Part shown: positions 9,001-25,822 of the stretch, piece by piece
Position numbering within the stretch: position 1 is the first letter of the stretch
Layout of the letters: each line of letters opens with the position of its first letter
From: Macrostomum lignano
Lineage: Eukaryota
Length of the DNA: 25,822 nucleotides
Assembly (NCBI GenBank): GCA_002269645.1
Contig: NIVC01000531.1
Location: 1 to 25,822, forward strand
Direction: 5' to 3'
Made by a program: the position numbers and the translations under genes
Notes under the pieces: generated by a model
The model's database searches: none
Told to the model about the DNA's origin: nothing
What the model saw: only the letters and a program-made list of their open reading frames with translations

Positions 9001-12000
9001 GACCTGCTTGTTTGAGAATGATGACCTGCTGCTTGTTTAGAATGATGACCTGCTTGTTTGAGAATGATGACCTGCTTGTTTAAGAATGATGACCTGCTTG
9101 TTTAAGAATGATGACCTGCTTGTTAAGAATGATGACCCGCTTGTTTAAGAATGATGACCCGCTTGCTTGAGAATGATGGCCTGCTTGTTTGAGAATGATG
9201 ACCTGCTTGTTTGAGAATGATGACCTGCTTGTTTGAGAATGATGACCCGCTTGTTTGAGAATGATGACCCGCTTGTTTGAGAACAATGACCTGCTTGTTA
9301 AATGATGACCCGCTTGCTTGAGAATGATGACCTGCTTGTTAAAGAATGATGACCCGCTTGTTTAAGAATGATGACCCGCTTGTTTAAGAACGATGACCTG
9401 CTTGTTAAATAATGATGACCCGCTTGTTTAAGAATGATGACCCGCTTGTTTAAGAATGATGACCTGCTTGTTTAAGAATGATGACCCGCTTGTTTAAGAA
9501 TGATGACCCGCTTGTTTAAGAATGATGACGCTGTTCGTTTAGAATGATGACCCGCTTGTTTAAGAATGATGACCCGCTTGTTGAGAATGATGACCCGCTT
9601 GTTTAGAATGATGACCTGCTTGTTTGAGAATGATGACCTGCTTGTTAAAGAATGATGACCCGCTTGCTTGAGAATGATGACCTGCTTGTTAAAGAATGAT
9701 GACCCGCTTGTTTGAGAATGATGACCCGCTTGTTTAAGAATGATGACCTGCTTGTTTGAGAATGATGACCTGCTTGTTGAGAATGATGACCTGCTTGTTT
9801 GAGAATGATGACCTGCTTCTTAAAGAATGATGACCCGCTTGTTTGAGAATGATGACCCGCTTGTTTGAGAATGATGGCCTGCTTGTTTGAGAATGATGGC
9901 CTGCTTGTTTGAGAATGATGACCTGCTTTTTTGAGAATGATGACCCGCTTGTTTAAGAATGATGGCCTGCTTGTTTGAGAATGATGACCTGCTTGTTTGA
10001 GAATGATGACCTGCTTGTTTGAGAATGATGACCTGCTTGTTTGAGAATGATGACCTGCTGCTTGTTTGAGAATGATGGCCTGCTTGTTTAAGAATGATGG
10101 CCTGCTTGTTTGAGAATGATGACCTGCTTGTTTAAGAATGATGGCCTGCTTGTTTGAGAATGATGACCCGCTGCTTGTTTGAGAATGATGACCTGCTTGT
10201 TTGAGAATGATGACCTGCTTGTTTGAGAATGATGACCTGCTTGTTTGAGAATGATGACCGCTGCTTGTTTGAGAATGATGACCTGCTTGTTTGAGAATGA
10301 TGACCTGCTTGTTTGAGAATGATGACCTGCTTGTTTGAGAATGATGACCTGCTGCTTGTTTAAGAATGATGGCCTGCTTGTTTGAGAATGATGACCCGCT
10401 TGTTTAAGAATGATGACCTGCTTGTTTAGAATGATGACCTGCTTGTTAAAGAATGATGACCCGCTTGTTTAAGAATGATGACCCGCTTGCTTGAGAATGA
10501 TGGCCTGCTTGTTTGAGAATGATGACCTGCTTGTTTGAGAATGATGACCTGCTTGTTTGAGAATGATGACCCGCTTGTTTGAGAATGATGACCTGCTTGT
10601 TAAAGAATGATGACCCGCTTGTTTGAGAATGATGACTGCTTGTTAAAGAATGATGACCCGCTTGTTGAGAATGATGACCTGCTTGTTAAAGAATGATGAC
10701 CCGCTTGTTTAGAATGATGACCTGCTTGTTAAGAATGATGACCTGCTTGTTTGAGAATGATGACCTGCTTGTTTGAGAATGATGACCCGCTTGTTTGAGA
10801 ACGATGAACTGCTTGTTAAAGAATGATGACCCGCTTGCTTGAGAATGATGACCTGCTTGTTAAAGAATGATGACCCGCTTGTTTAAGAATGATGACCCGC
10901 TTGTTTAAGAACGATGACCTGCTTGTTTGAGAATGATGACCCGCTTGTTTGAGAATGATGACCTGCTTGTTTGAGAATGATGACCTGCTGCTTGTTTGAG
11001 AATGATGACGTGTTCGTTTGAGAATGATGACCTGCTTGTTTAAGAATGATGACCCGCTTGCTTGAGAATGATGACCTGCTTGTTTGAGAATGATGGCCTG
11101 CTTGTTTGAGAATGATGACCTGCTTGTTTGAGAATAATGGCCTGCTTGCTTGAGAATGATGACCTGCTTGTTTGAGAATGATGACCCGCTTGTTTGAGAA
11201 TGATGACCCGCTTGTTTAAGAATGATGGCCTGCTTGTTTGAGAATGATGACCTGCTTGTTTGAGAATGATGACCCGCTTGTTTAAGAATGATGGCCTGCT
11301 TGTTTGAGAATGATGACCTGCTTGTTTAAGAATGATGGCCTGCTTGTTTGAGAATGATGACCTGCTTGTTTGAGAATGATGACCTGCTGCTTGTTTGAGA
11401 ATGATGACCTGCTTGTTTGAGAATGATGGCCTGCTTGTTTGAGAATGATGACCTGCTTGTTTGAGAATGATGACCTGCTTGTTTGAGAATGGTGACCTGC
11501 TTGTTTGAGAATGATGACCTGCTTGTTTGAGAATGATGACCTGCTTGTTTGAGAATGATGACCTGCTTGTTTGAGAATGGTGACCTGCTTGTTTGAGAAT
11601 GATGGCCTGCTTGTTTGAGAATGATGACCCGCTTGTTTAAGAATGATGACCCGCTTGTTTGAGAACGATGACCTGCTTGTTTGAGAATGATGACCCGCTT
11701 GCTTGAGAATGATGACCTGCTTGTTAAAGAATGATGACCCGCTTGTTTAAGAATGATGACCCGCTTGTTTAAGAATGATGACCCGCTTGTTTAAGAACGA
11801 TGACCTGCTTGTTAAAGAATGATGACCCGCTTGTTTAAGAATGATGACCCGCTTGCTTGAGAATGATGGCCTGCTTGTTTGAGAATGATGACCTGCTTGT
11901 TTGAGAATGATGACCTGCTTGTTTGAGAATGATGACCTGCTTGTTTGAGAATGATGACCTGCTTGTTTGAGAATGATGACCTGCTTGTTTGAGAATGATG

Positions 12001-12376
12001 ACCTGCTTGTTTGAGAATGATGACCTGCTTGTTTGAGAATGATGACCTGCTGCTTGTTTGAGAATGATGACCCGCTTGTTTAAGAATGATGACCTGCTTG
12101 TTTGAGAATGATGACCCGCTTGCTTGAGAATGATGACCTGCTTGTTTGAGAATGATGACCTGCTTGTTTGAGAATGATGACCTGCTTGTTTGAAAATGAT
12201 GACCCGCTTGTTTGAGAATGATGACCTGCTTGTTTGAGAATGATGACCTGCTTGTTTGAAAATGATGACCCGCTTGTTTGAGAATGATGACCTGCTTGTT
12301 TGAGAATGATGACCTGCTTGTTTGAGAATGATGACCTGCTTGTTTGAGAATGATGACCTGCTTGTTTGAGAATGAT
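1..12376. repeat. 22-bp tandem satellite, ~560 copies, consensus GAATGATGACCTGCTTGTTTGA; continues beyond the left edge of the window
   Basis: Directly visible head-to-tail repeat. Common variants are GACCT/GACCC, TTTGAGA/TTTAAGA/TTAAAGA, GATGGCC and a 25-bp unit with a GCT duplication. No unique spacers. Ends at ...GAGAATGAT|CTGCTCGG (12376). Confidence 0.98.
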
Positions 12377-12379
12377 CTG

Positions 12380-12640
12380 CTCGGCATCAGCCAACATGCA
12401 GGCAGTCGACGGTAGGGTGTCTGCAGCGTGAGCGGCAGCACTTGCGCCGGCTGCGGACAGTAGGATTCGACTGCCTGCTCGATGAGGATGATGTTACCTG
12501 CCAGCTGGAGTCGCCGACGGCGCAACAGTTCACTGGGACGGGACAGGCCGGTGCGGCGATAGAGGGCCGCGTTGGTGACTCACTCGTAGCCGATCTTGAA
12601 GGCGGCGCGCAGCAGGGCCAGCGTGGCCCCCATGGCACTT
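12380..12640 (-). pseudogene. Decayed fragment of an RTE-clade non-LTR retrotransposon ORF (C-terminal region downstream of the RT domain)
   Basis: Minus strand reads LLRAAFKIGYE*VTNAALYRRTGLSRPSELLRRRRLQLAGNII...LPLTLQTPYRR, then frameshifted TVDCL/LADA. This matches the RTE pattern (V+N..LY......S..+R.RRL.+AGH+.R ...VD.L..D). It has an in-frame stop and indels, and is GC-rich relative to its flanks. Confidence 0.6.
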
Positions 12641-14789
12641 TGGGCAGGTCCTATTCTCGTACATGTAAAGAGATCTTTGGTCTTGCAGTCCTCACTGTTT
12701 CGGAGTTTATGGTTTGCTAATCTAAACTGTGACAGCGTGAACTTTAATTCTAGAGTTTGAAGCTGTAGTAAAATTGACTTCTTCTTTAGTAGTCGTCGTC
12801 TTGCTTAAGATCCTCTTCATCATCCTTGCTCATGCAGAGCTTGAGGGGCTGAAGAACTGAGTAGTCAGAGTGCATAATCATCGAATTATTGTAGACCTTT
12901 TCCTCTTCTTGGTTCTGTACCAACGAGGTTCGATTTCTAGATGCAACTACGCAAGTACTTGTCTTGTTAGGGGAAACACCAAAGTAGCAATACAATTAAT
13001 GCAGAAATATTAGTTGAAGATTTTTTAAGTCTCTTCTTTTCTAATCTAGGATTGTAAGATGGAACCTTGTGATGGTAATCAATTTTTAGGGACAAGTTTT
13101 GACTGTACGAGTATTGGATGGACTTTTTCTTATTAGCTGGTATGGATATGGAGTAGACAGACAGAACGAGCTCACATGCTGCAGGGTTATCTGCCTTAAA
13201 AGTACATTGACCAATTTTTATGCTTTATGTGTCAGACTAAAGATAATTTTTCAACGAAAAAACTTGTTATTTGAATTTCCTTTCTATCTGGCTTCGGTCA
13301 AGATTTACACCAGGAAATGTGAAGGAAGGTCAGTACTAGTGTTACTCAACCTCGAATGTCTGTGGTGTCACATTTCCAATGCACCTCGGTACTTTGAAAT
13401 TGGTCAAGGTACGTGTCAAACTCTCTCTGCTTGATAGACTTTCATTGGTCACTTGCAACCATTGCCTCCCAAGCGCACTGGCACTACACTCTTACAACAT
13501 GCTAAAGTTTCCACCATGAAACCAGTGGTCAACTTTTCTCAGATTTCGGTCCCAAGTGACGCAATTCACATCCCGTCCGCGGATCGACTTTGGGTGATGC
13601 AACTTGCGTTACAAGCTTAGGCTGGTGAGGAGAGAGTGGAGAGTTATATGGCTAGGTTTAGATTAAAGCTGCCACTCTCTTACTTTAACAGGAACTTTAA
13701 CATGCTGATGAGTGTGTTATATACACCAAGGTCCTACTATGGCTGCCACCTTTCTTTAAAAGTATCTTCTACGAGCGTAAGGTAGAGCCCTGTGGTGGAG
13801 GGTTACCTTAGGTAACCAAGCAAGTCACAAGGAGTCACTGATTAGTTTATTCGCGGGTTAAGGTCTATCAGTAAGCACACTTTCCGGGACTAAAGATTCC
13901 ATGAGGAATGTGGACCCGCAGCCAGCAAGGAAGCAAGCAGTCATGCTCATTGCGTTAACCCCTGAGCACGCCTATGCACACGGTTACGTTCGCAGGCACA
14001 ATCACACAAGGTGTACAGTGGACCTGAAGGAGCGGCTCTTCATAAGCGAGAATCGCACAAGCACCAGGCAAATATTTCTTGCACAAGCCCCAAAATACGA
14101 GTACTTGGCCATATGTCTTATAACACATGTTATATGTTATTTTCTTCATGTGTAGAGTTTTATTTTACTACTTACTGCATTGAAACAAGTAGTCTGTGTT
14201 GCATATGGTTGCATAATTTTCTTTTATTTTTTAGCACTTTTTGCAGCATGTGTGTCTACTTTGAATTTTACGTTTTAATTCCGGGGCCGAACTTTATTCA
14301 ATGCATTCTCCAATTTCCGATGAAATCCCTATTTTATCCACTAGGAACCCAAGGAGGAGAACGATTGGGAAGTCTCGGCGTTTCTAGTCGACTTGAAATC
14401 GATCAATATCAGCCCTAATTTCTCTCCATTCCAGTGCTTAATTTCTACGTCCACTTTCGTGAGTATCAAGACGTCACATCACGGGCCACGCAGTGTAGTC
14501 GCATTCTGTCTTTATTTAGACAGTCTCTTGCTCTCTCGTGTATCTTTCAAAATTAGTGTCGATCCAGTTTATCGCACGTGCAGTTAACGCTCGTTGTTCA
14601 ATATCAAAAATGTGCACTTAAGTTTCTACGAGTATACAATGTGGAATAATTGGGTCTCTACTTTCTCCCTCAATGCCGGAAGACTCACTCAGCCTCACAA
14701 TCAAACCACGATGAGGTGGCTCCTCAAGCCTATACTCGTAGTAGCTATGTGCGTGCCGCCCAAGGCATAGAGACTCCCAAAACGCACTT

Positions 14790-14797
14790 AGTAGTAG
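14790..14797 (+). other. Candidate left terminus of the Maverick TIR (AGTAGTAG); preceding 6 bp GCACTT is the candidate target-site duplication
   Basis: Polinton termini begin 5'-AG and consist of 1-3 bp microrepeats. The motif sits ~35 bp before the first degenerate subterminal repeat unit (14824). The partner TIR is not in the window. Confidence 0.55.
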
Positions 14798-14866
14798 GGC
14801 GAATTATGATACTGCCGCACTAGCACTGGCGAGATAGGCGGCAATGCAAATGTATAGGGAAAAATA

Positions 14867-15130
14867 CACTGCGGAGATATGAGCCCTATCTCTGTGCATT
14901 GGGGACGGCTAAGCACTGCAGAGATATGAGCTCTATCTCTGTGCATTGGGGACGGCTAAGCACTGCAGAGATATGAGCTCTATCTCTGTGCATTGGGGAC
15001 GGCTAAGCACTGCAGAGATATGAGCTCTATCTCTGTGCATTGGGGACGGCTAAGCACTGCAGAGATATGAGCTCTATCTCTGTGCATTGGGGACGGCTAA
15101 GCACTGCAGAGATATGAGCTCTATCTCTGC
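14867..15130. repeat. Subterminal tandem array A: 47-bp unit, 5 full copies plus 1 partial, each with a CAGAGATA/TATCTCTG inverted repeat
   Basis: CACTG starts at 14867, 14914, 14961, 15008, 15055 and 15102. Unit: CACTGCAGAGATATGAGCTCTATCTCTGTGCATTGGGGACGGCTAAG. Confidence 0.97.
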
Positions 15131-15363
15131 TTAACACAGGAGTGATAGGAGAAGAGGCGGCCTATTTCTTTACACTGGAGATGGTTAACACTGCAGAGAT
15201 AGGAGGAGAGGCGGCCTATCTCTTTGCATTGGGGGTGGTTAACACTGCAGAGATAGGAGGAGAGGCGGCCTATCTCTTTGCATTGGGGGTGGTTAACACT
15301 GCAGAGATAGGAGGAGAGGCGGCCTATCTCTTTGCATTGGGGGTGGTTAACACTGCAGAGATA
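15131..15363. repeat. Subterminal tandem array B: 54-bp unit, 4 full copies plus 1 partial, each with an AGAGATAGG/CCTATCTCT inverted repeat
   Basis: TTAACAC starts at 15131 (degenerate copy), 15185, 15239, 15293 and 15347. Unit: TTAACACTGCAGAGATAGGAGGAGAGGCGGCCTATCTCTTTGCATTGGGGGTGG. Confidence 0.97.
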
Positions 15364-15378
15364 AGATGTTAATCTATG

Positions 15379-15500
15379 TAATTGGAAATAATGTTTGCGA
15401 AAGAGCCAATCACAGAGCCCGGAGTGGGATGGGTGGTTTGGGGTGGTTCGGTCGAGGGTATATAAGCCCCGAAATTGACAAGAAAGAATTCTCAATTTTT
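15379..15500 (+). promoter_or_regulatory. Canonical Pol II promoter for the PC4-like gene
   Basis: Reverse CCAAT (ATTGG 15381), AGCCAATCA (CCAAT at 15406), two GGGTGG GT-boxes (15431, 15441), TATATAAG (15459-15466) and Inr-like TCAATTT (15492), upstream of ATG 15571. Confidence 0.65.
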
Positions 15501-15570
15501 CAAATCCAAAATTTCATCCGAAATTTTCCTCAGCTTTTAACTTTTGTGAGTTTTCAATTGCGAAAGGAAA

Positions 15571-16347
15571 ATGGACATCTGTGAAGGCTATAAGGCACAA
15601 GTCCAGGAGTTTGAAGGACAAAAATTTATCGCTATTCGCAAATTTTACCGACACGGCAGCACGGCAAGTCTGAAGCCAGGCGTCCCAGGATTCAACCTGA
15701 ATGTTCACCAATGGAAGAAATTGAAGGAGGTGAAACGCTCACTTGTGATTTCTGCACGCAACAACGAGCCCAAGGTCGTGAAACTCGGCTTCGATAAGTT
15801 TGTGGAAGTCAAAGGCGGCATCATTTGGCTCAAACGGCTGCCGGAAGATTGCTGCGAGGAGTTTTTGAGACGAAACGCCGTACCACTGACTCCGCCGCTG
15901 TGGCAGAAGCTCTGGAAAATCGCCTCCTGGATCGACGGTCAGCTGGTGGCTCCCTTGAGGAACACAATGCAGTACGAGCTGGAGTCTGATGAGGAAGAGG
16001 AGGAAGAGGACAAGAAGCTCAAGTTGGAGGCTGACCAGGACACGAAGCCCATAATGGAGACTGATGAGGGCGGAGATCATGCTGATGACGAGGACGTTAG
16101 CTCGCCCACAAGGCCGCGCATTGTGACTGAGCCAATCACATCCACACCGATACCTTCGGTTGATTCTGATGCTGGACTGCTTCCGCAGCGGGACACCAAC
16201 CTTGAGGAAGATCCGGTGTGGTATCAGTTCAGGGCGCATGCAGCGGCTTCGACGGTGAGCAGCAGCAGCAGGAAGCGAAAGCTGCCATTTCAACTTCGTC
16301 GGCAGGACGCGATGAGGCTGCAGCCCAATGTTCGCTTTGATAACTGA
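15571..16347 (+). CDS. Protein with PC4/Sub1-like ssDNA-binding domain (probably two in tandem), acidic tract and basic C-terminal patch, 258 aa
   Basis: aa 1-57 (ICEGYKAQVQEFEGQKFIAIRKFY...LKPGVPGFNLNVHQWKKLKE) align by eye with the PC4 core ([24 protein letters not shown]...[20 protein letters not shown]). aa 69-125 repeat the pattern more weakly. Confidence 0.8.
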   Translation: MDICEGYKAQVQEFEGQKFIAIRKFYRHGSTASLKPGVPGFNLNVHQWKKLKEVKRSLVISARNNEPKVVKLGFDKFVEVKGGIIWLKRLPEDCCEEFLRRNAVPLTPPLWQKLWKIASWIDGQLVAPLRNTMQYELESDEEEEEEDKKLKLEADQDTKPIMETDEGGDHADDEDVSSPTRPRIVTEPITSTPIPSVDSDAGLLPQRDTNLEEDPVWYQFRAHAAASTVSSSSRKRKLPFQLRRQDAMRLQPNVRFDN

Positions 16348-16553
16348 ACAGCTAGAATGCTTTGAATGCATTGGACTAACTAAATTACTTTTAGCTTGCA
16401 CATGATTATCCAGCCTGACGGCACTATGCTGTTTTTTATCTCTGCTATTTCTGAAATGCTGGTGTGCGAGTGTTTTAGTGTTCGTTTTTATGGATTGTTT
16501 GCTTTCGGAAAATACACCGACTGTTACGATGTTAGAGGTTTCAATCTGACAGT

Positions 16554-16559
16554 AATAAA
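16554..16559 (+). terminator. Candidate polyadenylation signal AATAAA for the PC4-like gene
   Basis: AATAAA ~200 nt after stop 16347 in the AT-rich intergenic region. Confidence 0.45.
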
Positions 16560-16587
16560 TTAATTTGCCACTCGTTTCTCTATCATT

Positions 16588-16616
16588 TAATTGGAATATA
16601 AATTTCTACTTAAGAA
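16588..16616 (+). promoter_or_regulatory. Candidate integrase promoter: TAATTGGAA, TATAAAT (16597) and CTTAAGAA (16609)
   Basis: Motifs lie 59-80 nt upstream of ATG 16668. Confidence 0.45.
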
Positions 16617-16667
16617 AAAATACTGTACAGCTAGAGCAGGTGGATAGGCACGTATCTTGATAAACCC

Positions 16668-17738
16668 ATGATGGAGAAAATTTATTTGAAACCTGAGCAA
16701 CCGGCTAGTTTTTCTTGTGCCTCAAAGTTGCTGCATGAAGTGAGGCAAAGAGGTGATCGAATATCTGCAAAGAGCATTGAGCAGTGGCTCAGCGAGCAGC
16801 CAGTGCACACTCTGCACAAGCCAGCTAGGAGGCGATATCCAAGGGCCCCAATCATAGTGCGCGCAATCGATGATCAGTGGGAACTTGACTTAGTGGAAAT
16901 GATTCCATTCGCAAAGCATAATAAAGGCTACAAATATATTCTCACATGCATTGACGTGCTCTCAAAATGTGCTTGGGCCAAGGCACTGAAAAATAAATCT
17001 GCTGCAGAAGTGAAGTCAGCATTCGAGAGCATACTGAGAAGTTCAAAGCGCCAGCCACGCACAGTTCGCACAGATCAGGGGAAGGAATTTATCAACTCCA
17101 CTTTCCGTCAATACTGCATTGACAGAGGGATTCTGGCTTTCCCAACTAACAGCGAGCAGAAGGCAGCTGTCATTGAGCGATGGAATCGAACTCTGAAAAG
17201 TAGAATGTGGCGCTACTTCACCTACAAGAGCACACTGCACTGGCTTGATGTGCTGCCTAAGCTGGTAAAATCCTACAACAATACCTACCACAGAAGCATC
17301 AAAATGGCACCCACTAGTGTCTGCAAAGAGAATGAATCTGAAGTGTGGATGAACCTGTACGATGGAAAAGCAGTCGAGACTCTAGAAAAATTAAAGAAGC
17401 CTAAGTTCGCTGAAAACCAGTCAGTGAGAATTTCCAATGCTCCACGGATATTCAAAAAGGGATACAAAGCGAGCTGGAGTGAGGAAGTGTACACCGTGGT
17501 GAGCAGAGCCCCAAAACATTATCCCTACATGTACAAGATTAAAGACATGCGGGGGCAAGAGATTCGAGGACTCTTCCATGAGCACGAGCTGCAGGCTGTC
17601 CCGGACTCACAGCGGCTGTATGTGATTGAGAAGATCCTGAAAACGGAGAAGCGGAAGGGAAAAATTCGCTATCTGGTGAAATGGGCGGGCTACGACTCGA
17701 CTGGCTGGGTGGATGAAAAAGACTTAAGAAAGGTTTAG
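16668..17738 (+). CDS. INT: Retroviral-like (rve) DDE integrase with C-terminal chromodomain, 356 aa
   Basis: Catalytic motifs QWELDL, RTDQGKEF and VIERWNRTLK. Chromodomain YVIEKILK...YLVKWAGYDSTGWVDEKDL (17619-17735). The ORF is uninterrupted. Confidence 0.95.
   Translation: MMEKIYLKPEQPASFSCASKLLHEVRQRGDRISAKSIEQWLSEQPVHTLHKPARRRYPRAPIIVRAIDDQWELDLVEMIPFAKHNKGYKYILTCIDVLSKCAWAKALKNKSAAEVKSAFESILRSSKRQPRTVRTDQGKEFINSTFRQYCIDRGILAFPTNSEQKAAVIERWNRTLKSRMWRYFTYKSTLHWLDVLPKLVKSYNNTYHRSIKMAPTSVCKENESEVWMNLYDGKAVETLEKLKKPKFAENQSVRISNAPRIFKKGYKASWSEEVYTVVSRAPKHYPYMYKIKDMRGQEIRGLFHEHELQAVPDSQRLYVIEKILKTEKRKGKIRYLVKWAGYDSTGWVDEKDLRKV
17723..17730 (+). promoter_or_regulatory. CTTAAGAA box, 44 nt upstream of minor capsid ATG
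   Basis: Recurrent element motif at conserved spacing (see findings). Confidence 0.5.
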
Positions 17739-17766
17739 CTTTGGCACAGCCCTCATCATGTAGTTT

Positions 17767-18585
17767 ATGATTATAATGCGAACTATTTTGATTAACAGTG
17801 AGCATGCTGAAGGTACTCCTAGTGACTTTAATTTTTACCTGCCTTCACCTATTTACTTGGATCGAAATGTGGACTATGAGGCAGGTCTGGCTGAAATCCA
17901 TCTGCCTGCTGCATGGTTCAATGTTGACGAGCCTTACTGCTTCACTGTCTCAGATGGAAGAGAGCATGAGGCCCTGGTTCTTCAACCCGGACGCTTTGCT
18001 AGAGTGGAGGAGCTGGTGGAGCGCCTGAATGAGCTGCTGGCCAACTCTGATTCGCTGTTCTTTGATGCAATGAGTGACAGGGAGTCTGAGATGGAGGCTG
18101 ATGAGTCCGGCCTGATGGGGCGTAGTGGCAACAGGGAATTTGGTATGAAGTTCGAAATCCGCAACTCACGAACTGTGGTGCACAACAACACTGCGAGAGC
18201 AGAGCTGTTTCTTCCATCTAGTAAAATTCTGCATTGGCTGGGATTTGGAAACCAGGCTGTGAAAATCCAGCCAGGGAGCCGCGTATCCGAGCATTGCATT
18301 GGCTGCCCGCGCACCAGCTTAATCAATGTGCACTGCAGTATCGTTGAGTCAACTAATTGCAACTGGAGCTCCTTGTTGAGAACAGTTGGAATGAAAGCTG
18401 GCATTGAATGGGGCAACTATCAAACAAAAATATTTAAGAAAACAATATTCTTCCCGATTCAACGAATCAGTCTTCTTCACAGCATTCGAGTTCAGCTGCG
18501 GGACATCTATGGTTGCCCACTGATTGCACAGACTCACAGCCCTGTTCTGCTTACAGTTCAAATTCAGGAGAAACGCATTCAATGA
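17767..18585 (+). CDS. PX: Polinton minor capsid protein (penton, single jelly-roll), 272 aa
   Basis: N-terminal NSE...PSDFNFYLPSPIYL...YEAGLAEI and C-terminal INVHCSIVE...LLRTV...FFPI...SIRVQLRDIYGCPL match the Polinton PX pattern. Typical position between integrase and capsid genes. Confidence 0.8.
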   Translation: MIIMRTILINSEHAEGTPSDFNFYLPSPIYLDRNVDYEAGLAEIHLPAAWFNVDEPYCFTVSDGREHEALVLQPGRFARVEELVERLNELLANSDSLFFDAMSDRESEMEADESGLMGRSGNREFGMKFEIRNSRTVVHNNTARAELFLPSSKILHWLGFGNQAVKIQPGSRVSEHCIGCPRTSLINVHCSIVESTNCNWSSLLRTVGMKAGIEWGNYQTKIFKKTIFFPIQRISLLHSIRVQLRDIYGCPLIAQTHSPVLLTVQIQEKRIQ

Positions 18586-18958
18586 ACTACCAGCAGCTAA
18601 TCCAGCAATATTCGGGGTGAGGACAGGACACGAAAAGCCTGCACTCTATGGCTGTGGGAGCTTCCCAGGGATCATGACATACCAGCCTCCGCCAGCGGCT
18701 ATATCATCATCATCAGCCTCGACGCTTAGCAACGTCAGGCGCAAAAGAAATACTGAAGCAAGTCCGAAACGATTGAAGAAAAAGAAGGGCACCCGAAAGG
18801 CAACTGGTGGAAATCGCAGTAAGAGGTCGAGCAAGGCTAGTGGGAAAAAGCTTAAGAATAGGAAGACGAAAGCAAAGAAGAATAGAGCAGGCGGAGGAAA
18901 GCGAAAGCAAAAAGTCAGCAAGAAAACTGTGAAACGCGTGCTCGACTCTCTGTCATAG
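18582..18958 (+). CDS. Small highly basic (K/R-rich) putative virion core / DNA-condensing protein; probable 1-nt deletion at G4 18614-18617
   Basis: ATG 18582 overlaps the PX stop (ATGA). Restoring one G gives MNYQQLIQQYSGVRTGHEKPALYGCGSF... joined to the K/R-rich tail of the tracked ORF 18524..18958. Confidence 0.65.
18851..18858 (+). promoter_or_regulatory. CTTAAGAA box, 110 nt upstream of major capsid ATG
   Basis: Recurrent element motif. Confidence 0.4.
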
Positions 18959-18960
18959 AC

Positions 18961-20244
18961 ATGGCTTACGGATTCAATCCCAGACTTGATTTATTTAAGA
19001 CGCCCGTTCTACAAACCTGCATTGAAAAAGCTACTTATGTTGATATTCACCCAGTTAATTCCATTGTTGCAAACTCTCCCATTGAATTTGACTGCCACCA
19101 ATCTGCCGATGAATATACAGATCTGCTTAATTCTTTTCTTTATATTCGCTGCCGCCTTGTGAGACTGGATGGGGGTTTGCTGAGGGAGGATGTTCGAGAT
19201 GGAGATGGCATCATCACCGAGCGCAGAGACAGTGACGTGCACCCAGAAAATTTTGTTCTGTCTACAGCCTTCTCAGATGTAATTGTGAGCATTAACCAGC
19301 GAGTGGTGTCTGGTGGAGACCAGCTCTATCCCTACCATGCGTACTTCAAAGCACTAATGAGCTCATCCGATGCCCAGCAACTAAAACTTTACCCTGCTGG
19401 CTTCCTGGAGCCGAACTCGGCAGCTGAAGAGCACACGGAGAGCCACAGGGAATCCCAATGGATGGAGTATGCGGGGCCGCTCTTCAGCGATGTTTTCCAG
19501 TGCCCAGTGTTTCTGCTAAGCAATCTGCACCTGCACATCAAACTGGTCCCCAGCGATGGGGCCTTTGCCATCAGAACCCCGAATGCAAACAACGCGGCAT
19601 ACCGAATGGAAATCTCTCACAGCATTCTGCATCTTCGCCGAGTCAAAGTGATGCCCCACATCAGCCTGGCCCATGAGCAGGGGCTGACAAACCAAAATGC
19701 ACTGTATCCCATCGAGCGAACTGAAATGCAGAACTTCATCCTACCCCAGGGTATTCAGTCAAAAAACATTGAAGGATTCACTCATGGAAAATTGCCGAAG
19801 TTCATCATGCTGGCCTTCGTGAGCCACCGAGCATTCAACGGTCATCATCACGCGAGCCCGTTACAGTTCCAGAGCTTCAACCTTAGCCGATTGGCTCTAA
19901 AGAAAGGTGGGGAAACCGTGTGCCACGGCGCCTTCACACCTGAAAACAATTCCTTCGTAAGAGAATACTTGCACTACCTGAAAAGCTGTCAATCTGCAAG
20001 CCACACAAACTCGGTCCCGTGGATCCCCTACCAGCTCTTCTCCAACAACACCACGGTGTTTGCATTCGATCTCACACCCGAGGGAGCGGCTCTGTGGTAC
20101 GGACAGAAGGAGGGCAACCTGCGGCTGGAGATTCGCTTCCAACAGGCTCTGAATGAAGCGGTGTCCCTGATTGCTATGTGCCTGTATGACTCGCTGATTG
20201 AGGTCACCAAGCACCGAGAGCTTTTGCTGGACTATTCCTCTTAA
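18961..20244 (+). CDS. PY: Polinton major capsid protein (double jelly-roll), 427 aa
   Basis: LDLFKTPVLQTCIE...HPVNSI...PIEF...YTDLLNSFLYIRCRL...DG at the N-terminus; LPKFIMLAFVSHRAFNG...PLQFQSFNL and VFAFDLTP...GNLRLEIRF...L at the C-terminus. Typical PY size; the ORF is uninterrupted. Confidence 0.92.
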   Translation: MAYGFNPRLDLFKTPVLQTCIEKATYVDIHPVNSIVANSPIEFDCHQSADEYTDLLNSFLYIRCRLVRLDGGLLREDVRDGDGIITERRDSDVHPENFVLSTAFSDVIVSINQRVVSGGDQLYPYHAYFKALMSSSDAQQLKLYPAGFLEPNSAAEEHTESHRESQWMEYAGPLFSDVFQCPVFLLSNLHLHIKLVPSDGAFAIRTPNANNAAYRMEISHSILHLRRVKVMPHISLAHEQGLTNQNALYPIERTEMQNFILPQGIQSKNIEGFTHGKLPKFIMLAFVSHRAFNGHHHASPLQFQSFNLSRLALKKGGETVCHGAFTPENNSFVREYLHYLKSCQSASHTNSVPWIPYQLFSNNTTVFAFDLTPEGAALWYGQKEGNLRLEIRFQQALNEAVSLIAMCLYDSLIEVTKHRELLLDYSS

Positions 20245-20249
20245 TTGAC

Positions 20250-20762
20250 ATGGATGCAATTCAACTACTTAATCTCGCCAGAAAATTTTTGCCTTACCAA
20301 AAATTTCTCATAGTTACTTTACATTTGCGCTATAAAAATTCTCTGCCCTTGAATGTAAAAAGAAAATTTAGATCATCAATTTCCTTTGAAAACAAGTTTG
20401 TTTTTGTCCTACTTCAGCACAATGGCTCATTTGGTCACTGGGTGGTGTGCTATGTTGGGCAAGGAAATCGCATTGAGTTGTTCAACTCCCTCGGCTGGGA
20501 ACCTGAAATTTTATCTTTGGTTTATAATTTGTTTCGAGAGATTAAAACAACTGGCTTTTGGCTCCGAAGCAATATAAACAGAGTTCAATGTGCTAACTCT
20601 AATAAATGCGGAATGTTTTGCATCTATTTTGCTTATCAAAAGTTTCTGTTCAATCGGTCATTTGAGGGGATTTTGAAGCATTTGCATGCTAATGAGAAAA
20701 ATCATTTGAATGATAGAATCTTACAGAGGTTTGAAGCCAACTTAAGAAAAAGATGTCCGTGA
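20250..20762 (+). CDS. PRO: Adenain-like (clan CE) cysteine maturation protease, 170 aa
   Basis: GHWVV (His63), LFNSLG (Asn79 at the usual Asp/Glu position), RVQ (Gln113) and CGMFC (Cys120). Confidence 0.88.
   Translation: MDAIQLLNLARKFLPYQKFLIVTLHLRYKNSLPLNVKRKFRSSISFENKFVFVLLQHNGSFGHWVVCYVGQGNRIELFNSLGWEPEILSLVYNLFREIKTTGFWLRSNINRVQCANSNKCGMFCIYFAYQKFLFNRSFEGILKHLHANEKNHLNDRILQRFEANLRKRCP
20741..20748 (+). promoter_or_regulatory. CTTAAGAA box, 45 nt upstream of the in-frame ATPase ATG 20786 (12 nt upstream of ATG 20753)
   Basis: Recurrent element motif at conserved spacing. Confidence 0.5.
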
Positions 20763-21432
20763 TTTCTAATATTTATGCATTAAACATGGGAGAAAAGCAA
20801 GTTTGCTACGATATCCGCCTCAGGCAGGGAAGCTGCATGATTGTCTGCGGGCCCACCAATGCAGGAAAAACAACCTTTGTCGAACACCTGATCCAGTACA
20901 GAGACGTCATGTTTGATGTGAAGCCTGGCAGAGTTCTGTGGTACTATGGGATCTCACAGGCAGGCCATGCAGAACTGAACAGCCTAGGTGTGCAGCTGCG
21001 CCAGGGATTTCCCACCAACATCGAGGCAGCACTTAGGCCCAATGACCTGGTTGTTTTCGATGACTTAATAGAGGAAACTTCAAACTCTGCTTCAATGCGA
21101 AATTTTTTCACAGGAATCGCACATCACTTGCCGTGCTTTTTGGTGATGCTGACTCAGAATATATTTTTCAAGGGAAAAGAGTCGCGAACAATGAGCTTGA
21201 ATGTAATGTACTTAGCTATCTTGAAAAACCCCGAGACCAGCTGCAGATTGCAGCACTGGGCAGGCAGTGCTTTACAGAGAAGCCCGGCTTTCTGCTGTCA
21301 GTGTTCAAGCACGTGACCGCGCAGGGCAGGGGAGCCTACCTGTTCCTAGACTTTCACCCATCAACTCCCGATGAGCTGCGAGTGCGGGCCAGAATTCTGC
21401 CCAACCAGCGACCCCATCTTGTATTTGCTTAA
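20753..21432 (+). CDS. ATP: A32/FtsK-family genome-packaging ATPase; 1-nt deletion at C4 21229-21232 splits it into two tracked ORFs
   Basis: Walker A GPTNAGKT, Walker B LVVFDDL, AHH...LTQN and RTMSLN. Adding one C restores the conserved KNPRDQLQI and continues to YLFLDF...LRVR...VFA*. The true start may be 20786. Confidence 0.92.
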
Positions 21433-21435
21433 GAA
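21428..21435 (+). promoter_or_regulatory. CTTAAGAA box, 46 nt upstream of ATG 21474
   Basis: Recurrent element motif at conserved spacing. Confidence 0.5.
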
Positions 21436-21473
21436 AGTGAAGCTTGTTTTTATCAGCTATTGTTTTCATCGCA

Positions 21474-21812
21474 ATGGAAGTGCTTGATTCATATGCAAGT
21501 CTTTTTGCGGTTCTTGCGTCACCTAAATATACCGTGCGCTTCAAGCGGCTGTTGATAAAAAATTGTCCAAAAGAAGTGCGTTATTTTCTTGTCGAGGCCT
21601 GCCATAATCTCTTACAAAACAATCTATCGTTTTCGCTCGATGAAAAAGCTGTTCTTGCAAAGTCAAAAGAGATAATTCGAAAAATTACTCACAAAAGAAG
21701 AAAGACAGACTTGTTGAAGGCTGGCTTCATCAAAATACTCCCGATTCTGCTTAAGCTGGTAAAGAAGAAGAAGCAAAATGAACAAATTTTCAGAAATGGT
21801 TCTGATTCCTAA
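21474..21812 (+). CDS. Conserved small helical Polinton protein of unknown function (PW/PZ-type; exact name not assignable), 112 aa
   Basis: LLIKNCPKEVRYFLVEACHNLLQNNLSFS..EK..L.K.K.IIRKI...RRK..LLKAGFIKILPILL resembles the Polinton family pattern (I.E...N+L.GN+.L...K..L.K+K..LR.L). First ATG at 21474; the tracked start 21444 is TTG. Confidence 0.65.
   Translation: MEVLDSYASLFAVLASPKYTVRFKRLLIKNCPKEVRYFLVEACHNLLQNNLSFSLDEKAVLAKSKEIIRKITHKRRKTDLLKAGFIKILPILLKLVKKKKQNEQIFRNGSDS
21750..21755 (+). promoter_or_regulatory. CTTAAG box, 46 nt upstream of in-frame ATG 21796
   Basis: Recurrent element motif at conserved spacing. Confidence 0.4.
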
Positions 21813-22470
21813 AGCAGAGTATGAGATGTTGATGCAGAATTTGAAGCCAAATGAGACTACCACTGAAGCTGACTTGAAGCAGGCTCAGAAGAAATGCGAT
21901 GACATCTTGTATGCCGAGGATTGTCCAGAAGATGTGAAAACCGCCATGTACCAAAGTGCAATGCAAAGTTTGCTGGCCAAGCGCAAGCACGCTGGAAAAG
22001 AAGGAGCACGCAATACTGAAGCCAAGTTGATGAAAACAGAGACACCCCAGATAAGCACCTGGGAAGAGAAGATCAGCAAGTCGGTGCCACAGAAATTCAA
22101 AACCAGGGCTCGCAGTCTGTGGACGATCCTGTCCACCAATCCAGAGCTGATTCGAGTTTGTGAAAACGGGGAGGTGGAAATCGCAGGCACGTCAATCCCT
22201 TCCTCAAACATACTGGACTTGATTCAGCACACAGTGAGGGATTCGCCATGTGAGCGTGAACCAGTTGGGTGGAACGAGTTCATCGATTTTCTGCAGCAGA
22301 AAAAGCTTAATGTTCCGCTTTCCGCTGTTGGTAAATCAGTTAAGAAGAAAATGGCAACCAGCAGAGGGGGTGAACTGGAGAAAGAACAGGAGAGTCTAGT
22401 CAAGGGGTACGGGAGCAACACAGCCTGGCTGAAATTGCCTGCCAGAAAAGTATATAAGAAGGTGGACTGA
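21778..22470 (+). CDS. Conserved Polinton protein of unknown function, 230 aa (possible start 21796, MVLIPK)
   Basis: MVLIP...DDIL...K..MYQ..MQ..L and ENGEVEIAGTSIPSSNILDLI...PVGWNEFIDFL...NVPLSAVG match a family I recognise from Polintons (GE+...G..IP.SNI.DL+...P.G+..F...L...NVP.S.+GN). Confidence 0.7.
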   Translation: MNKFSEMVLIPKAEYEMLMQNLKPNETTTEADLKQAQKKCDDILYAEDCPEDVKTAMYQSAMQSLLAKRKHAGKEGARNTEAKLMKTETPQISTWEEKISKSVPQKFKTRARSLWTILSTNPELIRVCENGEVEIAGTSIPSSNILDLIQHTVRDSPCEREPVGWNEFIDFLQQKKLNVPLSAVGKSVKKKMATSRGGELEKEQESLVKGYGSNTAWLKLPARKVYKKVD

Positions 22471-22483
22471 CTCCGAAATTTTC
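22451..22483 (+). promoter_or_regulatory. Candidate promoter TATATAAGAA...CCGAAATTTTC for the DEDD-like/TBP-like genes, embedded in the end of the upstream ORF
   Basis: TATATAAG at 22451 (49 nt before ATG 22500) and CCGAAATTTTC at 22473. Both motifs also occur near the PC4-like gene start (15459, 15518). Confidence 0.5.
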
Positions 22484-22499
22484 GAAGGAAAGCTGCATC

Positions 22500-22978
22500 A
22501 TGAACTACATTGACTTCCAAGGATTCCCGTGCAACAGCACAAGCAAAAAATTTGTTGTGAAGGAGTTGGCAGTTGTTCAAATCAGAGCGGGGAGCTACCA
22601 CATTGCTCACCATGTGTACGCACCTCCGTATCCATGGGAGAGAGTCTCACCTGACATGCGAGTTTACTACAGACAGCTATCTAAGAGTCTGCACCAGTTT
22701 AAGTGGAATGATGGAACCCGTCCGTACATGGAACTGGCGGAAGACATTCTGAGCATTGCCAGTGGTCCGATCTGGTCAAATGGGGAAAGGAAGTCGATTT
22801 TTCTGACTGAGCTGCTTGGAAGACAGGTTTATAACCTAGAAGATTTGGGAGCACCCTCGACTGAAGATTCAGATACTGGCTGTGCAGTGAGAAATTCGTT
22901 GCTGCACTACAGTTGGCTTAAGCCAAAGTTCTGCATCAACTTAAGAAGCGAGCAGTGTCCGTGGCACACGAGCAGTAA
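22500..22978 (+). CDS. Degenerate DEDD/RNase H-fold exonuclease-like Polinton protein, ~159 aa after correcting a probable 1-nt deletion near 22920
   Basis: YIDFQGF...FVVKELAVV...HHVYAPPYPW...HQFKWNDGTRPY...GERK...NLEDLGAP...CAVRN..L..WL. Adding one A gives WLKAKVLHQLKKRAVSVAHEQ* ending at 22978, ahead of the TBP ATG. Confidence 0.55.
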
Positions 22979-23019
22979 AGTTGGCAGAAGCAGATTTGGT
23001 GAAGAAGTTGACGATCGAA

Positions 23020-23592
23020 ATGAGCCCACCAGCTACAGCCCTAAGAGTGACCAATCTGGTTGGCGGAGTAGATCTGAGACTGGATGGTGGCAGGGGCGCT
23101 CAGCTGCCTCTACGGGAACTGGCTCTCAGCATGGCTCATGTGATCTACCGGCCCGTCTGGCCCCGGGTGCTCATCAAGCGGATGCGGATTCCCAGAGTGA
23201 CTCTCCTACTCTACCCTACTGGGCAACTGAGCATCTGCGGTGCCAAGACCCACGCAGACGCCAAAAGGGCTGCCCGTCGCTTCGTGGCTATGCTGCATCG
23301 GAGAGTGCCGGCTCAACTGCTGCCTCATCAAACAATTTGTGTTCGAATTAAAACTATTACTGCTCATGGACAGCTCCCAGTTCATTCCGCACTTTCCTTA
23401 TTAATGTTAAAATCAATTATCCCAAACGCCGAATATGAACCAGAATCCTTTTCTGCTTTAATTTTCAATTTAAACTTTTGTAAATGTCTGCTTTTTCACA
23501 GCGGCTCTTTTGTTCTCAGTGGAGCTCGGTCCTTGAATCAGTTGCATACCGATAGCATGCGTCTACTCAATGTAGTTCTTTCCATTGAATAA
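23020..23592 (+). CDS. Divergent TATA-binding protein (TBP)-like protein, 190 aa, both core repeats and almost no N-terminal tail
   Basis: Repeat 1: VTNLVGGVDL...LPLRELAL....IYRP.WPRVLIKRMRIPRVTLLLYPTGQLSICGAK...AKRAARRF. Repeat 2: EYEPESFSALIF...KCLLFHSGSFVLSGAR. These parallel TBP (LQNIVSTVNL..LDLKTIAL...[35 protein letters not shown]...AARKY / SYEPELFPGLIY...LLIFVSGKVVLTGAK). First ATG 23020; the tracked start 22981 is TTG. Confidence 0.9.
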   Translation: MSPPATALRVTNLVGGVDLRLDGGRGAQLPLRELALSMAHVIYRPVWPRVLIKRMRIPRVTLLLYPTGQLSICGAKTHADAKRAARRFVAMLHRRVPAQLLPHQTICVRIKTITAHGQLPVHSALSLLMLKSIIPNAEYEPESFSALIFNLNFCKCLLFHSGSFVLSGARSLNQLHTDSMRLLNVVLSIE

Positions 23593-23599
23593 AAATAAA
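23588..23599 (+). terminator. Tandem polyadenylation signals AATAAA-AATAAA overlapping the TBP-like stop codon
   Basis: GAATAAAAATAAAG at the end of the plus-strand gene block, followed by an AT-rich convergent intergenic region. Confidence 0.65.
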
Positions 23600-24174
23600 G
23601 TCAAGTCAAGCAATTTGCCGCAAATATTTCAATGATTAGTGAAAAGTGAATAAAAGGATAAACTTGGTATTCTTTACATTCATTTTCCCAGGCAGACAGC
23701 TATGGAACACTTCAAAAACGTATTTAGCCCATCACCAAAAGTATCGCAAAACGCATATCAAATCCGAAAGTAAACAATACTACCATCGTTATAACAAACG
23801 ATGTGCACCGAGAGAAGAGAAATAGAAAAGTGATAGAGAAAATATGATTAAAACGCTGATTGAATTTACAGGAACAATTTGTGTCAGATAAAAACCAAAA
23901 ACACATTTTAAACAAGTAGTACACAAAGCAAACAAAAATGAATTAATATTGTATGAGCGCACTTGCCACACAGCTTTATAAAAAGTAAAACTTAAATTGA
24001 TATCAATATTTCACGCCGCAAAAACAAATTGACAGCTAAATCTAGCGCAATTAGCCAAGCATACAAATTTGTAAAAGTTACTACATGCAAGTCACTACAT
24101 TTAAAACAGAATTTGGCAATTTAAACAACTCTAAAAGCAAGAAAAAGTACTAAACAGTCTGTTAAACACCCGCA

Positions 24175-25822
24175 CTAGACCAGTCGGATGCGCTTCAGCT
24201 GATCGTGGGATGCGGGCGTCAGCGCATAGTGTCCGTAGGGCAGGCTTCGATTACTGCTAAGCCACACTCGCTTATCCTCCCACACCGATAGGCTTCTTTT
24301 CTCCATGACCGACGTGAAGATTTCGTGTTTCTTGGAAACAATCGCTGTCATGGCAACCATCTGCTCTTGCTTGGACTCGAACGCGTCGACATAGTTCGCA
24401 TGCGAAATTTGCTGTCTTACTACTGACTGCTTCACGCCTTTGGCAGTTTTCTTGATCTTTGCACTCGAATTCTCGGCAGGGAGAAACGAATAAAGTTTTG
24501 GACGCAAAAGAATCCACTCCTGGTAAATTCCACCAGCAGATTCATCTTTAACGCAGCCCAGCTTTCCTTTTAACTCTTCAGAGAAATGCGGATGGTCTCG
24601 AGAATAGTTGGATGTGTCAAGTATTTTTTCCTCTCTAAGCTTCGGGATTACCTCCGATGTTAAATCATGATTCTTGAAAGCTAGAAAAAATGAGTCAGTA
24701 TCACCTCCGCAAAGCATCATGTCTCTGGAACCGTCTGAATGACAGAACAGCGGTCGGAGCCTGTCATATAGTAGGCTGTACATGGCCATCTTAGAGAGAT
24801 CGAGAACTGCCTGGCCAACGAAAATGGCCTTGTCAAGCGTGACTTTATCTTTTTTGAGCTGAAAAATGCTCAACGACTCATTGATAATCGAGAATGCGGC
24901 ACAGTTTGGTCGAGAGGCGCAAGTTTCTGCTTGAGTCTGGTTAGTGCAAATTCGAACATCGCATCTTTTTCGAACGTTCTCATAGTTTTTCCAAAGAGAG
25001 AATTGTTTTTCAATTTGTAAAAATCCTTAGCAAACTCGGAAGTTGCCAAAGCTCTTTTTTCATTGTTGCTGGCAATGTACGGCGCGAAAATATTTTCCTG
25101 CTTGAACGAAATCATTTTTTTGACGCACTTGATCCGCATTCCGTGTTGCAGGTAAAATCTTAAAACGGTGCTGTGAACTACGTAAGAATCCTTGTCGGTA
25201 CAGGTGAGTAGAAGCTTCTCCGTTGCTTGAAACTTAGCTTCAGCATTGCCAGTTCGCTGTTCAGCAATCTCTTTCCATAGTTCGGCCATGTACGGCGAGA
25301 ATTGATCTGGCTGTGGTTTTGATTTTTCAGGTGCAAACGGTAACTCCTGAGTCGAATCGTGAATCTCAGCTGGGTATTCTAGATCGAGTTGAACAAGGTA
25401 GGCGATCTCGGCTTCTGGATTTGAGTGACAGAAACCGATTGGAGTCCCAGAACTGGATTTCCTGTTCCGGTACCCACCTGAATTCCCTGCATGAAGCGGA
25501 AGCGACAGGGCAAAGCCATACAAGTTGTTCATATCGATCGCATGAGGCTTACACTCTCTTGCTGATCATCATAACCTGGCAAGCTAGGTTTACCTTTGAC
25601 GCAATGCACATTAATGAAGGACATGCCTCCTCGTATTCCCTTCTCAAACAGATGATCATGTCAGCATCAGTCAGGCTGCTCTAGAACCACTCCAGTCGAC
25701 TTTAGAGCTGAGTCGTAAGACAAACCAGGAGTAGTAAAGTAGTGTACCGGATCCAATCCGTCCTCTTTCAGACTGGCCTGTCGGAATGTCTCGAAAATGT
25801 CAGCCAGCTGCCTTACATCCAT
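24175..25822 (-). CDS. POLB: Protein-primed family B DNA polymerase (pPolB), C-terminal part; 5' end lies beyond the window; ~4 single-base frameshifts
   Basis: Read across frames: DVRQLADIFETFR (ExoIII), GLDPVHYFTTPGLSYDSALK, EKGIRGGMSFI, motif A IDMNNLYG, motif B KLKNNSLFGKTMENVRKR, motif C GGDTDS, LRPKLYS, KTAKGV. Frameshifts near 25672, 25657, 25541 and 24981. Confidence 0.95.

Follow-up and report, generated by a model that had tools for sequence, protein, structure and literature searches.

How do animal Mavericks express their genes, autonomously or with the help of another virus? The question is raised by a 25,822-nucleotide (nt) stretch of Macrostomum lignano DNA (contig NIVC01000531.1 of assembly GCA_002269645.1, positions 1 to 25,822 of the forward strand), referred to below as the window. 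By every feature testable here, the part from ~14790 to the window end is a Maverick/Polinton, whose probable left end is at 14790 and whose right end lies beyond the window. The hexamer CTTAAG occurs eight times in this element, each time 12–110 nt 5' of a plus-strand gene, and marks 7 of its 11 genes. In addition, the element encodes a TATA-binding protein (TBP) with an altered DNA-binding saddle. Taken together, these features suggest that the element switches on its own genes via a private promoter code. The box very probably occupies the core-promoter (TATA) slot, where it would act as a promoter, while the chances that it is read by the element's own TBP are evenly balanced. The boxes are as follows (ORF, open reading frame; MCP, major capsid protein).

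16609..16616, plus strand: CTTAAGAA box, intergenic, 59 nt before the integrase ATG at 16668
17723..17730, plus strand: CTTAAGAA box in the last integrase codons (D-L-R-K-V-stop), 44 nt before the minor capsid ATG at 17767
18851..18858, plus strand: CTTAAGAA box inside the ORF of the basic core protein, 110 nt upstream of the MCP ATG at 18961
20741..20748, plus strand: CTTAAGAA box within the tail of the protease gene, 45 nt upstream of the ATPase ATG at 20786 and 12 nt before the in-frame ATG at 20753
21428..21435, plus strand: CTTAAGAA box overlapping the ATPase 3'-frame stop codon, 46 nt upstream of the ORF112 ATG at 21474
21750..21757, plus strand: CTTAAGCT box within the tail of ORF112, 46 nt upstream of the ORF230 ATG at 21796
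22917..22924, plus strand: CTTAAGCC box, 103 nt before the TBP ATG at 23020
22940..22947, plus strand: CTTAAGAA box, 80 nt before the TBP ATG at 23020

Placement of the CTTAAG boxes

The boxes had been pointed out in an earlier note, which was made by eye. Its eight coordinates proved exact, six boxes indeed read CTTAAGAA, and all lie no more than 110 nt before a plus-strand start. It was likewise right that most are located inside upstream coding sequence (7 of 8 fall in or at the end of it, as Leu-Lys, Leu-Arg or stop) and that the protease and core genes lack one. The distances to ATG can all be reproduced, with the reservation that those of the ATPase (45 nt) and ORF230 (46 nt) count from the second in-frame ATG, the first ATGs giving 12 and 28 nt. 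The second Met is the start in three of four ORF230 relatives, and distant ATPases begin even further in. The extended word is RCTTAAGAA, the preceding base being a purine at 9 of 9 sites. Two more CTTAAG (12804 and 14617) fall outside the probable left end of the element, and a canonical TATAAA (16597) is found near the integrase box at 16609.

The placement was assessed for the 11 plus-strand genes with the first ATG of each, picked blind to the motif. All eight CTTAAG fall into the intervals 8–120 nt upstream of these genes, which make up 15% of 15400–23600 (binomial 2.8e-7), and the word ranks top in an unbiased hexamer scan with a score that none of 300 circular shifts matched. Since all but one of the eight sites are situated within coding sequence or at its end, synonymous codons were shuffled. 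This null marks 0.66 genes on average and at most 4 in 5000 runs, compared with 7 observed (family-wise 0/400), while the stricter permutation of codons within genes reaches at most 5 genes in 4000. When the latter was corrected family-wise over six window sizes and word lengths of 5–8, the observed value was reached in 1 of 150 permutations. Hence, the positional enrichment, for which the earlier note had proposed a permutation check, survives codon-aware nulls even after correction for the post hoc choice of word and window. The cluster at 44–47 nt has a chance of 0.002–0.016 if a second Met is allowed per gene. The absence of CTTAAG deep in gene interiors, which the earlier note had mentioned, holds as a count and is not significant by itself (P 0.17–0.20); the same applies to the absence of the longer word from the minus strand.

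These nulls also bear on the simplest explanation, in which the boxes would be a compositional by-product of Lys/Arg-rich protein tails and A-rich gene ends. Such an origin would account for the Leu-Lys, Leu-Arg and stop contexts of the seven coding sites, and the fully corrected null did reach the observed value once in 150. However, none of 9000 protein-preserving shuffles marked seven genes, all three CTT-AAG among 22 Leu-Lys pairs and all three TTA-AGA among 21 Leu-Arg pairs fall at box sites, and the same word arises in three reading frames as well as at one intergenic site. A by-product is hence very improbable.

The corresponding slot in distant Mavericks

For comparison, an integrase-alignment scan of prokaryotic genome bins returned 73 loci (given as L numbers), mostly misbinned Maverick contigs. 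Eukaryotic Maverick contigs sit in many such bins, about 20 of them in a single one. Twelve loci with weak or partial matches and bacterial-looking context (L061 and L063–L073) were excluded, and the remaining 61 (L001–L060 and L062) collapsed to 57 contigs. The comparison covers their 312 ORFs of at least 70 residues that have 150 nt of upstream sequence, some of which will be host or spurious ORFs.

In these contigs, TATAA[AG] is found 28–65 nt before the ATG of 55 of the 312 genes, compared with 19.5 ± 4.2 in the null (maximum 29 in 60). The median distance is 46 nt with a peak in the 41–50 nt bin, 13 of the 55 sites lie inside the upstream ORF, and a de novo hexamer scan puts TATAAA first. 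Per-gene TATA boxes ~46 nt before the ATG, often within the preceding gene, thus appear to be a general promoter architecture that is common among Mavericks, and the M. lignano element occupies the same slot with a different word. The correspondence extends to single junctions. The minor-capsid slot after the integrase contains TATAA[AG] in L011, L023, L030 and L057, and in L011 the TATAAA of the integrase tail is located at 45 nt, compared with 44 nt for the box in the window; the slot after the ATPase contains TATAA[AG] in four of seven distant elements.

In contrast to TATAA[AG], CTTAAG is not enriched in the 57 contigs (3 of 312 genes, null 3.1), and neither are TTAAG (13, null 17) and DTAAG (35, null 43). 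De novo scans of 16 larger contigs, one by one and with low power, found no private box. With TATAA[AG] in the slot and CTTAAG and DTAAG unenriched, the most likely role of the box is that of a non-canonical TATA element for host RNA polymerase II. The TATA-like core promoter that the earlier note had envisaged thereby gains support, and its qualification as element-specific is backed by the unenriched CTTAAG of the other contigs together with the altered viral TBP.

The same counts speak to a helper-dependent promoter, i. e. a baculovirus or nudivirus late TAAG or another large-virus motif, used by the RNA polymerase of a co-infecting virus with the start inside the motif, as in virophages and some polinton-like viruses. 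The box does include TTAAG, and there is precedent in Gezel-14T, which carries its helper's early motif, and in Sputnik and mavirus with a late motif, according to 10.1101/2022.07.28.501842. Yet, enrichment is confined to TTAAG preceded by C, TAAG is not depleted elsewhere, and DTAAG is no more frequent than expected in the distant Mavericks. Moreover, the slot coincides with the TATA slot of the relatives, and a start within the box at 17723 would first meet an out-of-frame AUG-stop. A helper promoter is therefore improbable. The resemblance to baculovirus DTAAG noted earlier did not hold up either: upstream of the genes, TTAAG not preceded by C and GTAAG are absent and ATAAG occurs twice (null 1.25). 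The accompanying statement that the window encodes no RNA polymerase agrees with a Pfam scan, which recognised none among the window ORFs.

A separate observation in the distant set concerns a stretch I-D-I-R/K-D at the end of the minor-capsid ORF (L008, L011, L013, L017, L018 and L030). Its codons repeatedly spell TATAA[AG] ~70–100 nt before the core gene, even in L011 with 54% GC. Possibly, this stretch is a dual-coding promoter.

The element's TBP and a putative expression programme

A plausible and specific candidate for the recognition of the box is the element's own TBP. The protein shares 99% identity with a Macrostomum lignano protein and has further relatives at 72–76%, and its structure model adopts the TBP fold (predicted local distance difference test score, pLDDT, 71; template modelling score, TM, ~0.7). 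Residues are compared with cellular TBP by yeast numbering. Kept are N69, V71, L114, F190, I194, L205, F207 and V213, as well as two acidic residues that correspond to the stirrup glutamates, which contact TFIIB as described in PMC10005294. The saddle is changed by P191S, V203K, N159T, V161T, V122S, T124C and F116Y. These changes are invariant across four sequences that are 70% alike; in the same set, invariance extends to 21 of 25 saddle positions as against 91 of 152 positions elsewhere (p 0.024). Of the 13 saddle positions that differ from cellular TBP, 11 are invariant. In the structural account of PMC1636458, the 5' half of the box is contacted by the C-terminal repeat of TBP, Pro191 reportedly allows only T at position 1, and V203 is one of three residues that set the specificity at position 2. 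Hence, the changes at Pro191 and V203 correspond to positions 1 and 2, exactly where the box carries C and T. An exchange of prolines between the TBP repeats ("proline swap": loss of Pro191, gain of a Pro at Ala100) appears in the MAFFT register only and is not claimed.

All eight boxes share the same three departures from the TATA consensus (C1, T2 and G6). TATAWAWR is matched only at 15459 and 22451, while every CTTAAG box has three mismatches. Such identical departures suggest a specific reader rather than tolerance. A second Maverick with a TBP offers a comparison. Two distant contigs encode one (L030:11565–12122 and L038:620–1240, ~20% identical to the element's TBP), so that TBP genes may be recurrent in Mavericks. 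The L030 protein retains Pro191 together with the four Phe, the two Asn and the two Thr and thus has a near-canonical saddle, and in L030 TATAA[AG] precedes 7 of 14 genes (null 2.0; 0/150) and CTTAAG none of 14.

Alternatively, the box could be a core promoter in the TATA slot whose reader comes from the host (TBP/TFIID, a TBP paralogue or some other factor), with the element's TBP being a decoy, a co-factor or idle at these sites. CTTAAGAA stays within the bases that are structurally acceptable to canonical TBP: the structure-based rule N-W-H-W-W-N-N-N, as given in PMC13566119, agrees with 9 of 9 window sites in this register, the rule being permissive. A two-base shift of the register (TATATAAG-like), which agrees at just 5 of 9 sites, was discarded. 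TATA boxes also occur in distant Maverick fragments in which no TBP was detected (L023, 7 of 18 genes; L011, 2 of 10), and the element's TBP may have lost one intercalating Phe. On the other hand, the three departures are fixed at all eight boxes although the element carries canonical TATATAAG twice, and CTTAAG occurs just once, at a distance from the 3' end, in the portions covered of five host promoters listed in a supplement, which stop short of the promoters' 3' ends. A host reader hence appears rather unlikely, and we lean slightly towards RCTTAAGAA as a non-canonical TATA box or core promoter that is preferentially read by the element's TBP.

Several observations weigh against this assignment. 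F99 aligns with Pro48 according to HMMER and hhalign and with Trp47 only according to MAFFT, in a loop with pLDDT <50; with F99 perhaps a Pro, a DNA-kinking residue may be lost and DNA binding could be poor. The TBP gene itself lies behind a box, so that a separate source of the first TBP is required. For three genes the boxes stand at 59, 80/103 and 110 nt, core and protease are boxless, and no initiator consensus was seen at +28 to +35 of the boxes. Among the relatives, TATA occurs at a minority of homologous junctions (integrase tail 4/29, MCP 4/13, integrase 3/21) and at neither the ORF230 (0/7) nor the protease junction (0/5). The contrast between TBP and box is one element versus one, L038 being too short, and L019 has CTTAAG 75 and 64 nt before two of its seven genes, with TBP absent from this integrase-bearing fragment. 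Finally, protein-level traces in closer relatives agree only weakly with conserved boxes. The D-L-R-K-V end is kept in the two closest integrases (70% and 82%) and in none of 148 others; this trace consists of five residues in proteins 70–82% alike, and a loose tail-compatibility test was also passed by 15 of 148 distant integrase tails. In ORF230 relatives, Leu-Lys occupies the offset from the stop at which the window has Tyr-Lys, in only two of four cases. The CTTAAG sites of L019 are located in the regions upstream of the genes at L019:1737 and 3701.

Two genes of the element carry canonical TATA boxes instead:

15406..15466, plus strand: host-type PC4 promoter, consisting of CCAAT (15406) and a canonical TATATAAG (15459)
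22451..22460, plus strand: canonical TATATAAG(AA) within the tail of ORF230, 49/47 nt upstream of ORF 22500

The earlier note had regarded TATAAGAA before ORF 22500, its "DEDD-like" gene, as a related variant box. This interpretation has to be abandoned, as TATAAGAA is part of the TATATAAG at 22451, an octamer identical to that of PC4. An exact 12-mer, TCCGAAATTTTC, is shared by the 5' regions of PC4 (15517–15528) and ORF 22500 (22472–22483) and occurs nowhere else, its spacing to the TATA box differing (58 nt for PC4, 21 nt for ORF 22500). It is a possible early-gene element.

Based on these features, an expression programme can be proposed. PC4 and ORF 22500, with canonical TATATAAG for host TBP, would be early genes, and the box genes would be late. 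The ORF 22500 transcript could supply the first TBP; this ORF has no stop before the TBP gene and overlaps it by 330 nt in a different frame. TBP, whose saddle would have changed to fit the box, could then amplify itself and fire the structural genes. RCTTAAGAA would serve the integrase, capsid, packaging and TBP genes as core promoter, with one box per gene, mostly written into the tail of the preceding one. Host RNA polymerase II would start ~30 nt past the box and produce 5' leaders of ~15 nt. Such a start would bypass the in-frame ATGs at 20753 and 21778, which in the case of 21778 agrees with the start used in three of four ORF230 relatives. Tiny upstream ORFs are present at 17758 (AUG-stop) and 20775 (two codons), 35 and 34 nt past the minor capsid and ATPase boxes and a few bases from the predicted cap. 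As the only AATAAA motifs beyond coding sequence follow PC4 and TBP, the box genes would give nested 3'-coterminal mRNAs that end at the cluster after TBP, where the plus-strand block probably has its common 3' end, and the boxless protease and core proteins could be translated from the transcript of a neighbouring gene. More tentatively, the whole could be viewed as an orthogonal module, in which a captured TBP, with a saddle that co-evolved with a private TATA variant, works with host RNA polymerase II and TFIIB to turn on the capsid, packaging and integrase genes once an early phase under canonical TATA boxes is over.

Tight gene packing and a single terminal AATAAA cluster would also suit RNA processing, that is, one polycistron split by spliced-leader trans-splicing or alternative acceptors, with the box as a branch-point-like or other processing element. 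In M. lignano, 30% of the genes are trans-spliced and 15% lie in operons, as reported in PMC8629364. However, YTNCAG is not enriched before the genes (2 versus 1.5 expected over 60 nt, 4 versus 3.1 over 120 nt) and stands between box and ATG at one of nine sites only, no AG is found in the 30 nt before the ATG at 20786 that follows the box at 20741, and the downstream flanks are purine-rich. A trans-splice acceptor or branch point was rejected on these counts and flanks, and a processing origin of the boxes seems a poor prospect overall. The other features of the element are listed below.

14790..15363, no strand: AGTAGTAG as probable left terminus, with tandem repeats of 47 bp and 54 bp behind it
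15571..16347, plus strand: PC4-domain protein (Pfam PC4 5.5e-08)
16668..17738, plus strand: retroviral-like integrase with chromodomain (Pfam rve 3.2e-13, Chromo)
17767..18585, plus strand: probable minor capsid protein, by position and phmmer similarity to the matching Maverick-contig ORF
18582..18958, plus strand: basic core-like ORF, frame broken here, no box directly upstream
18961..20244, plus strand: double jelly-roll MCP (model pLDDT 75 and Foldseek)
20250..20762, plus strand: adenovirus-like protease, no box upstream (Pfam Peptidase_C5 7.2e-05)
20753..21432, plus strand: packaging ATPase, frame broken in this copy (P-loop and similarity to Maverick contigs)
21474..21812, plus strand: ORF112, conserved Maverick gene, function unassigned (similarity to Maverick contigs)
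21796..22470, plus strand: ORF230, conserved Maverick gene, function unassigned (similarity to Maverick contigs)
22500..23351, plus strand: ORF 22500, continuing over the TBP gene in this copy
23020..23592, plus strand: element-encoded TBP, 190 residues, altered conserved DNA-binding saddle (Pfam TBP 7.9e-25)
23588..23654, plus strand: AATAAA cluster after TBP
24175..25822, minus strand: protein-primed DNA polymerase B (pPolB), 3' part, frame broken and gene truncated at the window end (Pfam DNA_pol_B_2)

The plus-strand order is thus PC4, integrase, minor capsid, core, MCP, protease, ATPase, ORF112, ORF230, ORF 22500 and TBP, with pPolB on the opposite strand; the frames of core, ATPase and polymerase are broken in this copy. 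The MCP model matches the PBCV-1, Sputnik and mavirus capsids in Foldseek at E 1e-12 to 1e-15. The polymerase match (DNA_pol_B_2, 7.1e-06) is just below the gathering score, and its promoter lies outside the window. ORF 22500 falls into unnamed, arthropod-dominated clusters of the Atlas, with Maelstrom as just a lead at 0.87, which leaves the "DEDD-like" label of the earlier note tentative. The protease gene (20250–20762) is AT-rich compared with its neighbours, and no protease relative was found among 18 candidates from a word-indexed search. At the left end, the terminus contains AGTAGT, which we take to be a Polinton end, and the tandem repeats just inside it (14867–15363) comprise 5.6 copies of 47 bp and 4.3 copies of 54 bp. 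The insertion adjoins ~12 kb of tandemly arrayed 22-bp satellite (1–12370), which is strongly strand-skewed and in which long ORFs are repeat artefacts. No structured-RNA match was obtained from Rfam across 12400–25822.

Relation to known systems

With pPolB, rve integrase, protease, ATPase and double jelly-roll capsid, the element resembles Mavericks/Polintons (polintoviruses, adintoviruses), whose defining gene set is described in PMC8097293. While canonical TATAA[AG] occurs at a minority of genes in its relatives, a non-canonical word stands here at 7 of 11 genes alongside an altered TBP. A literature search found no study of core promoters of animal Mavericks, although subscription papers and supplements may hold one; PMC11296320 and PMC11071308 do not mention promoter, TATA or TBP, and PMC8097293 contains nothing on Maverick promoters. 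The general result is hence the per-gene TATA box ~46 nt before the ATG, a promoter slot that is well supported by sequence comparison, and the specific one the private box with the altered TBP. Both bear on whether animal Mavericks are autonomous. If the proposed programme is true, it would be evidence that they run an autonomous, staged programme without helper virus, and a natural TBP with shifted specificity would inform the understanding of TATA recognition. M. lignano as a host provides transgenesis, an annotated genome and 5'-enriched RNA data, as reported in PMC5730564.

A short motif before many genes is likewise found in the helper-dependent promoters of virophages and polinton-like viruses and in baculovirus late DTAAG promoters. 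Unlike the initiators of helper polymerases, both the content and the spacing of the present motif fit the TATA slot. African swine fever virus (ASFV) encodes its own RNA polymerase. Viral TBP homologues are known from this large DNA virus (pB263R, PMC5825884) and from adinto-like MELD viruses (10.1101/697771, PMC8502044). The latter two sources name the adinto-like TBP genes only in legends for non-animal elements and contain no promoter passage.

The closest parallel is the late transcription of beta- and gammaherpesviruses (a large, polymerase II-binding TBP mimic, ORF24/BcRF1/UL87; TATT box; a viral pre-initiation complex, vPIC, of six subunits), as a functional analogy and not as homology. 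There, according to PMC6541308, a viral TBP mimic directs host RNA polymerase II to a minimal, modified TATA box ~30 bp before the start, which sets structural genes against canonical early promoters. The M. lignano element differs in that its TBP is a stand-alone core of 190 residues with a TFIIB stirrup, its word is CTTAAGAA and not TATTWAA, and it is an unrelated, integrating Maverick; vPIC subunits were not recognised among 13 window ORFs scanned with Pfam. If its TBP indeed reads the boxes, the element would harbor a one-protein, independently evolved counterpart of the herpesvirus late-gene switch. In the best reading, the TBP/promoter pair would be specific to the element and convergent with beta- and gammaherpesvirus late transcription.

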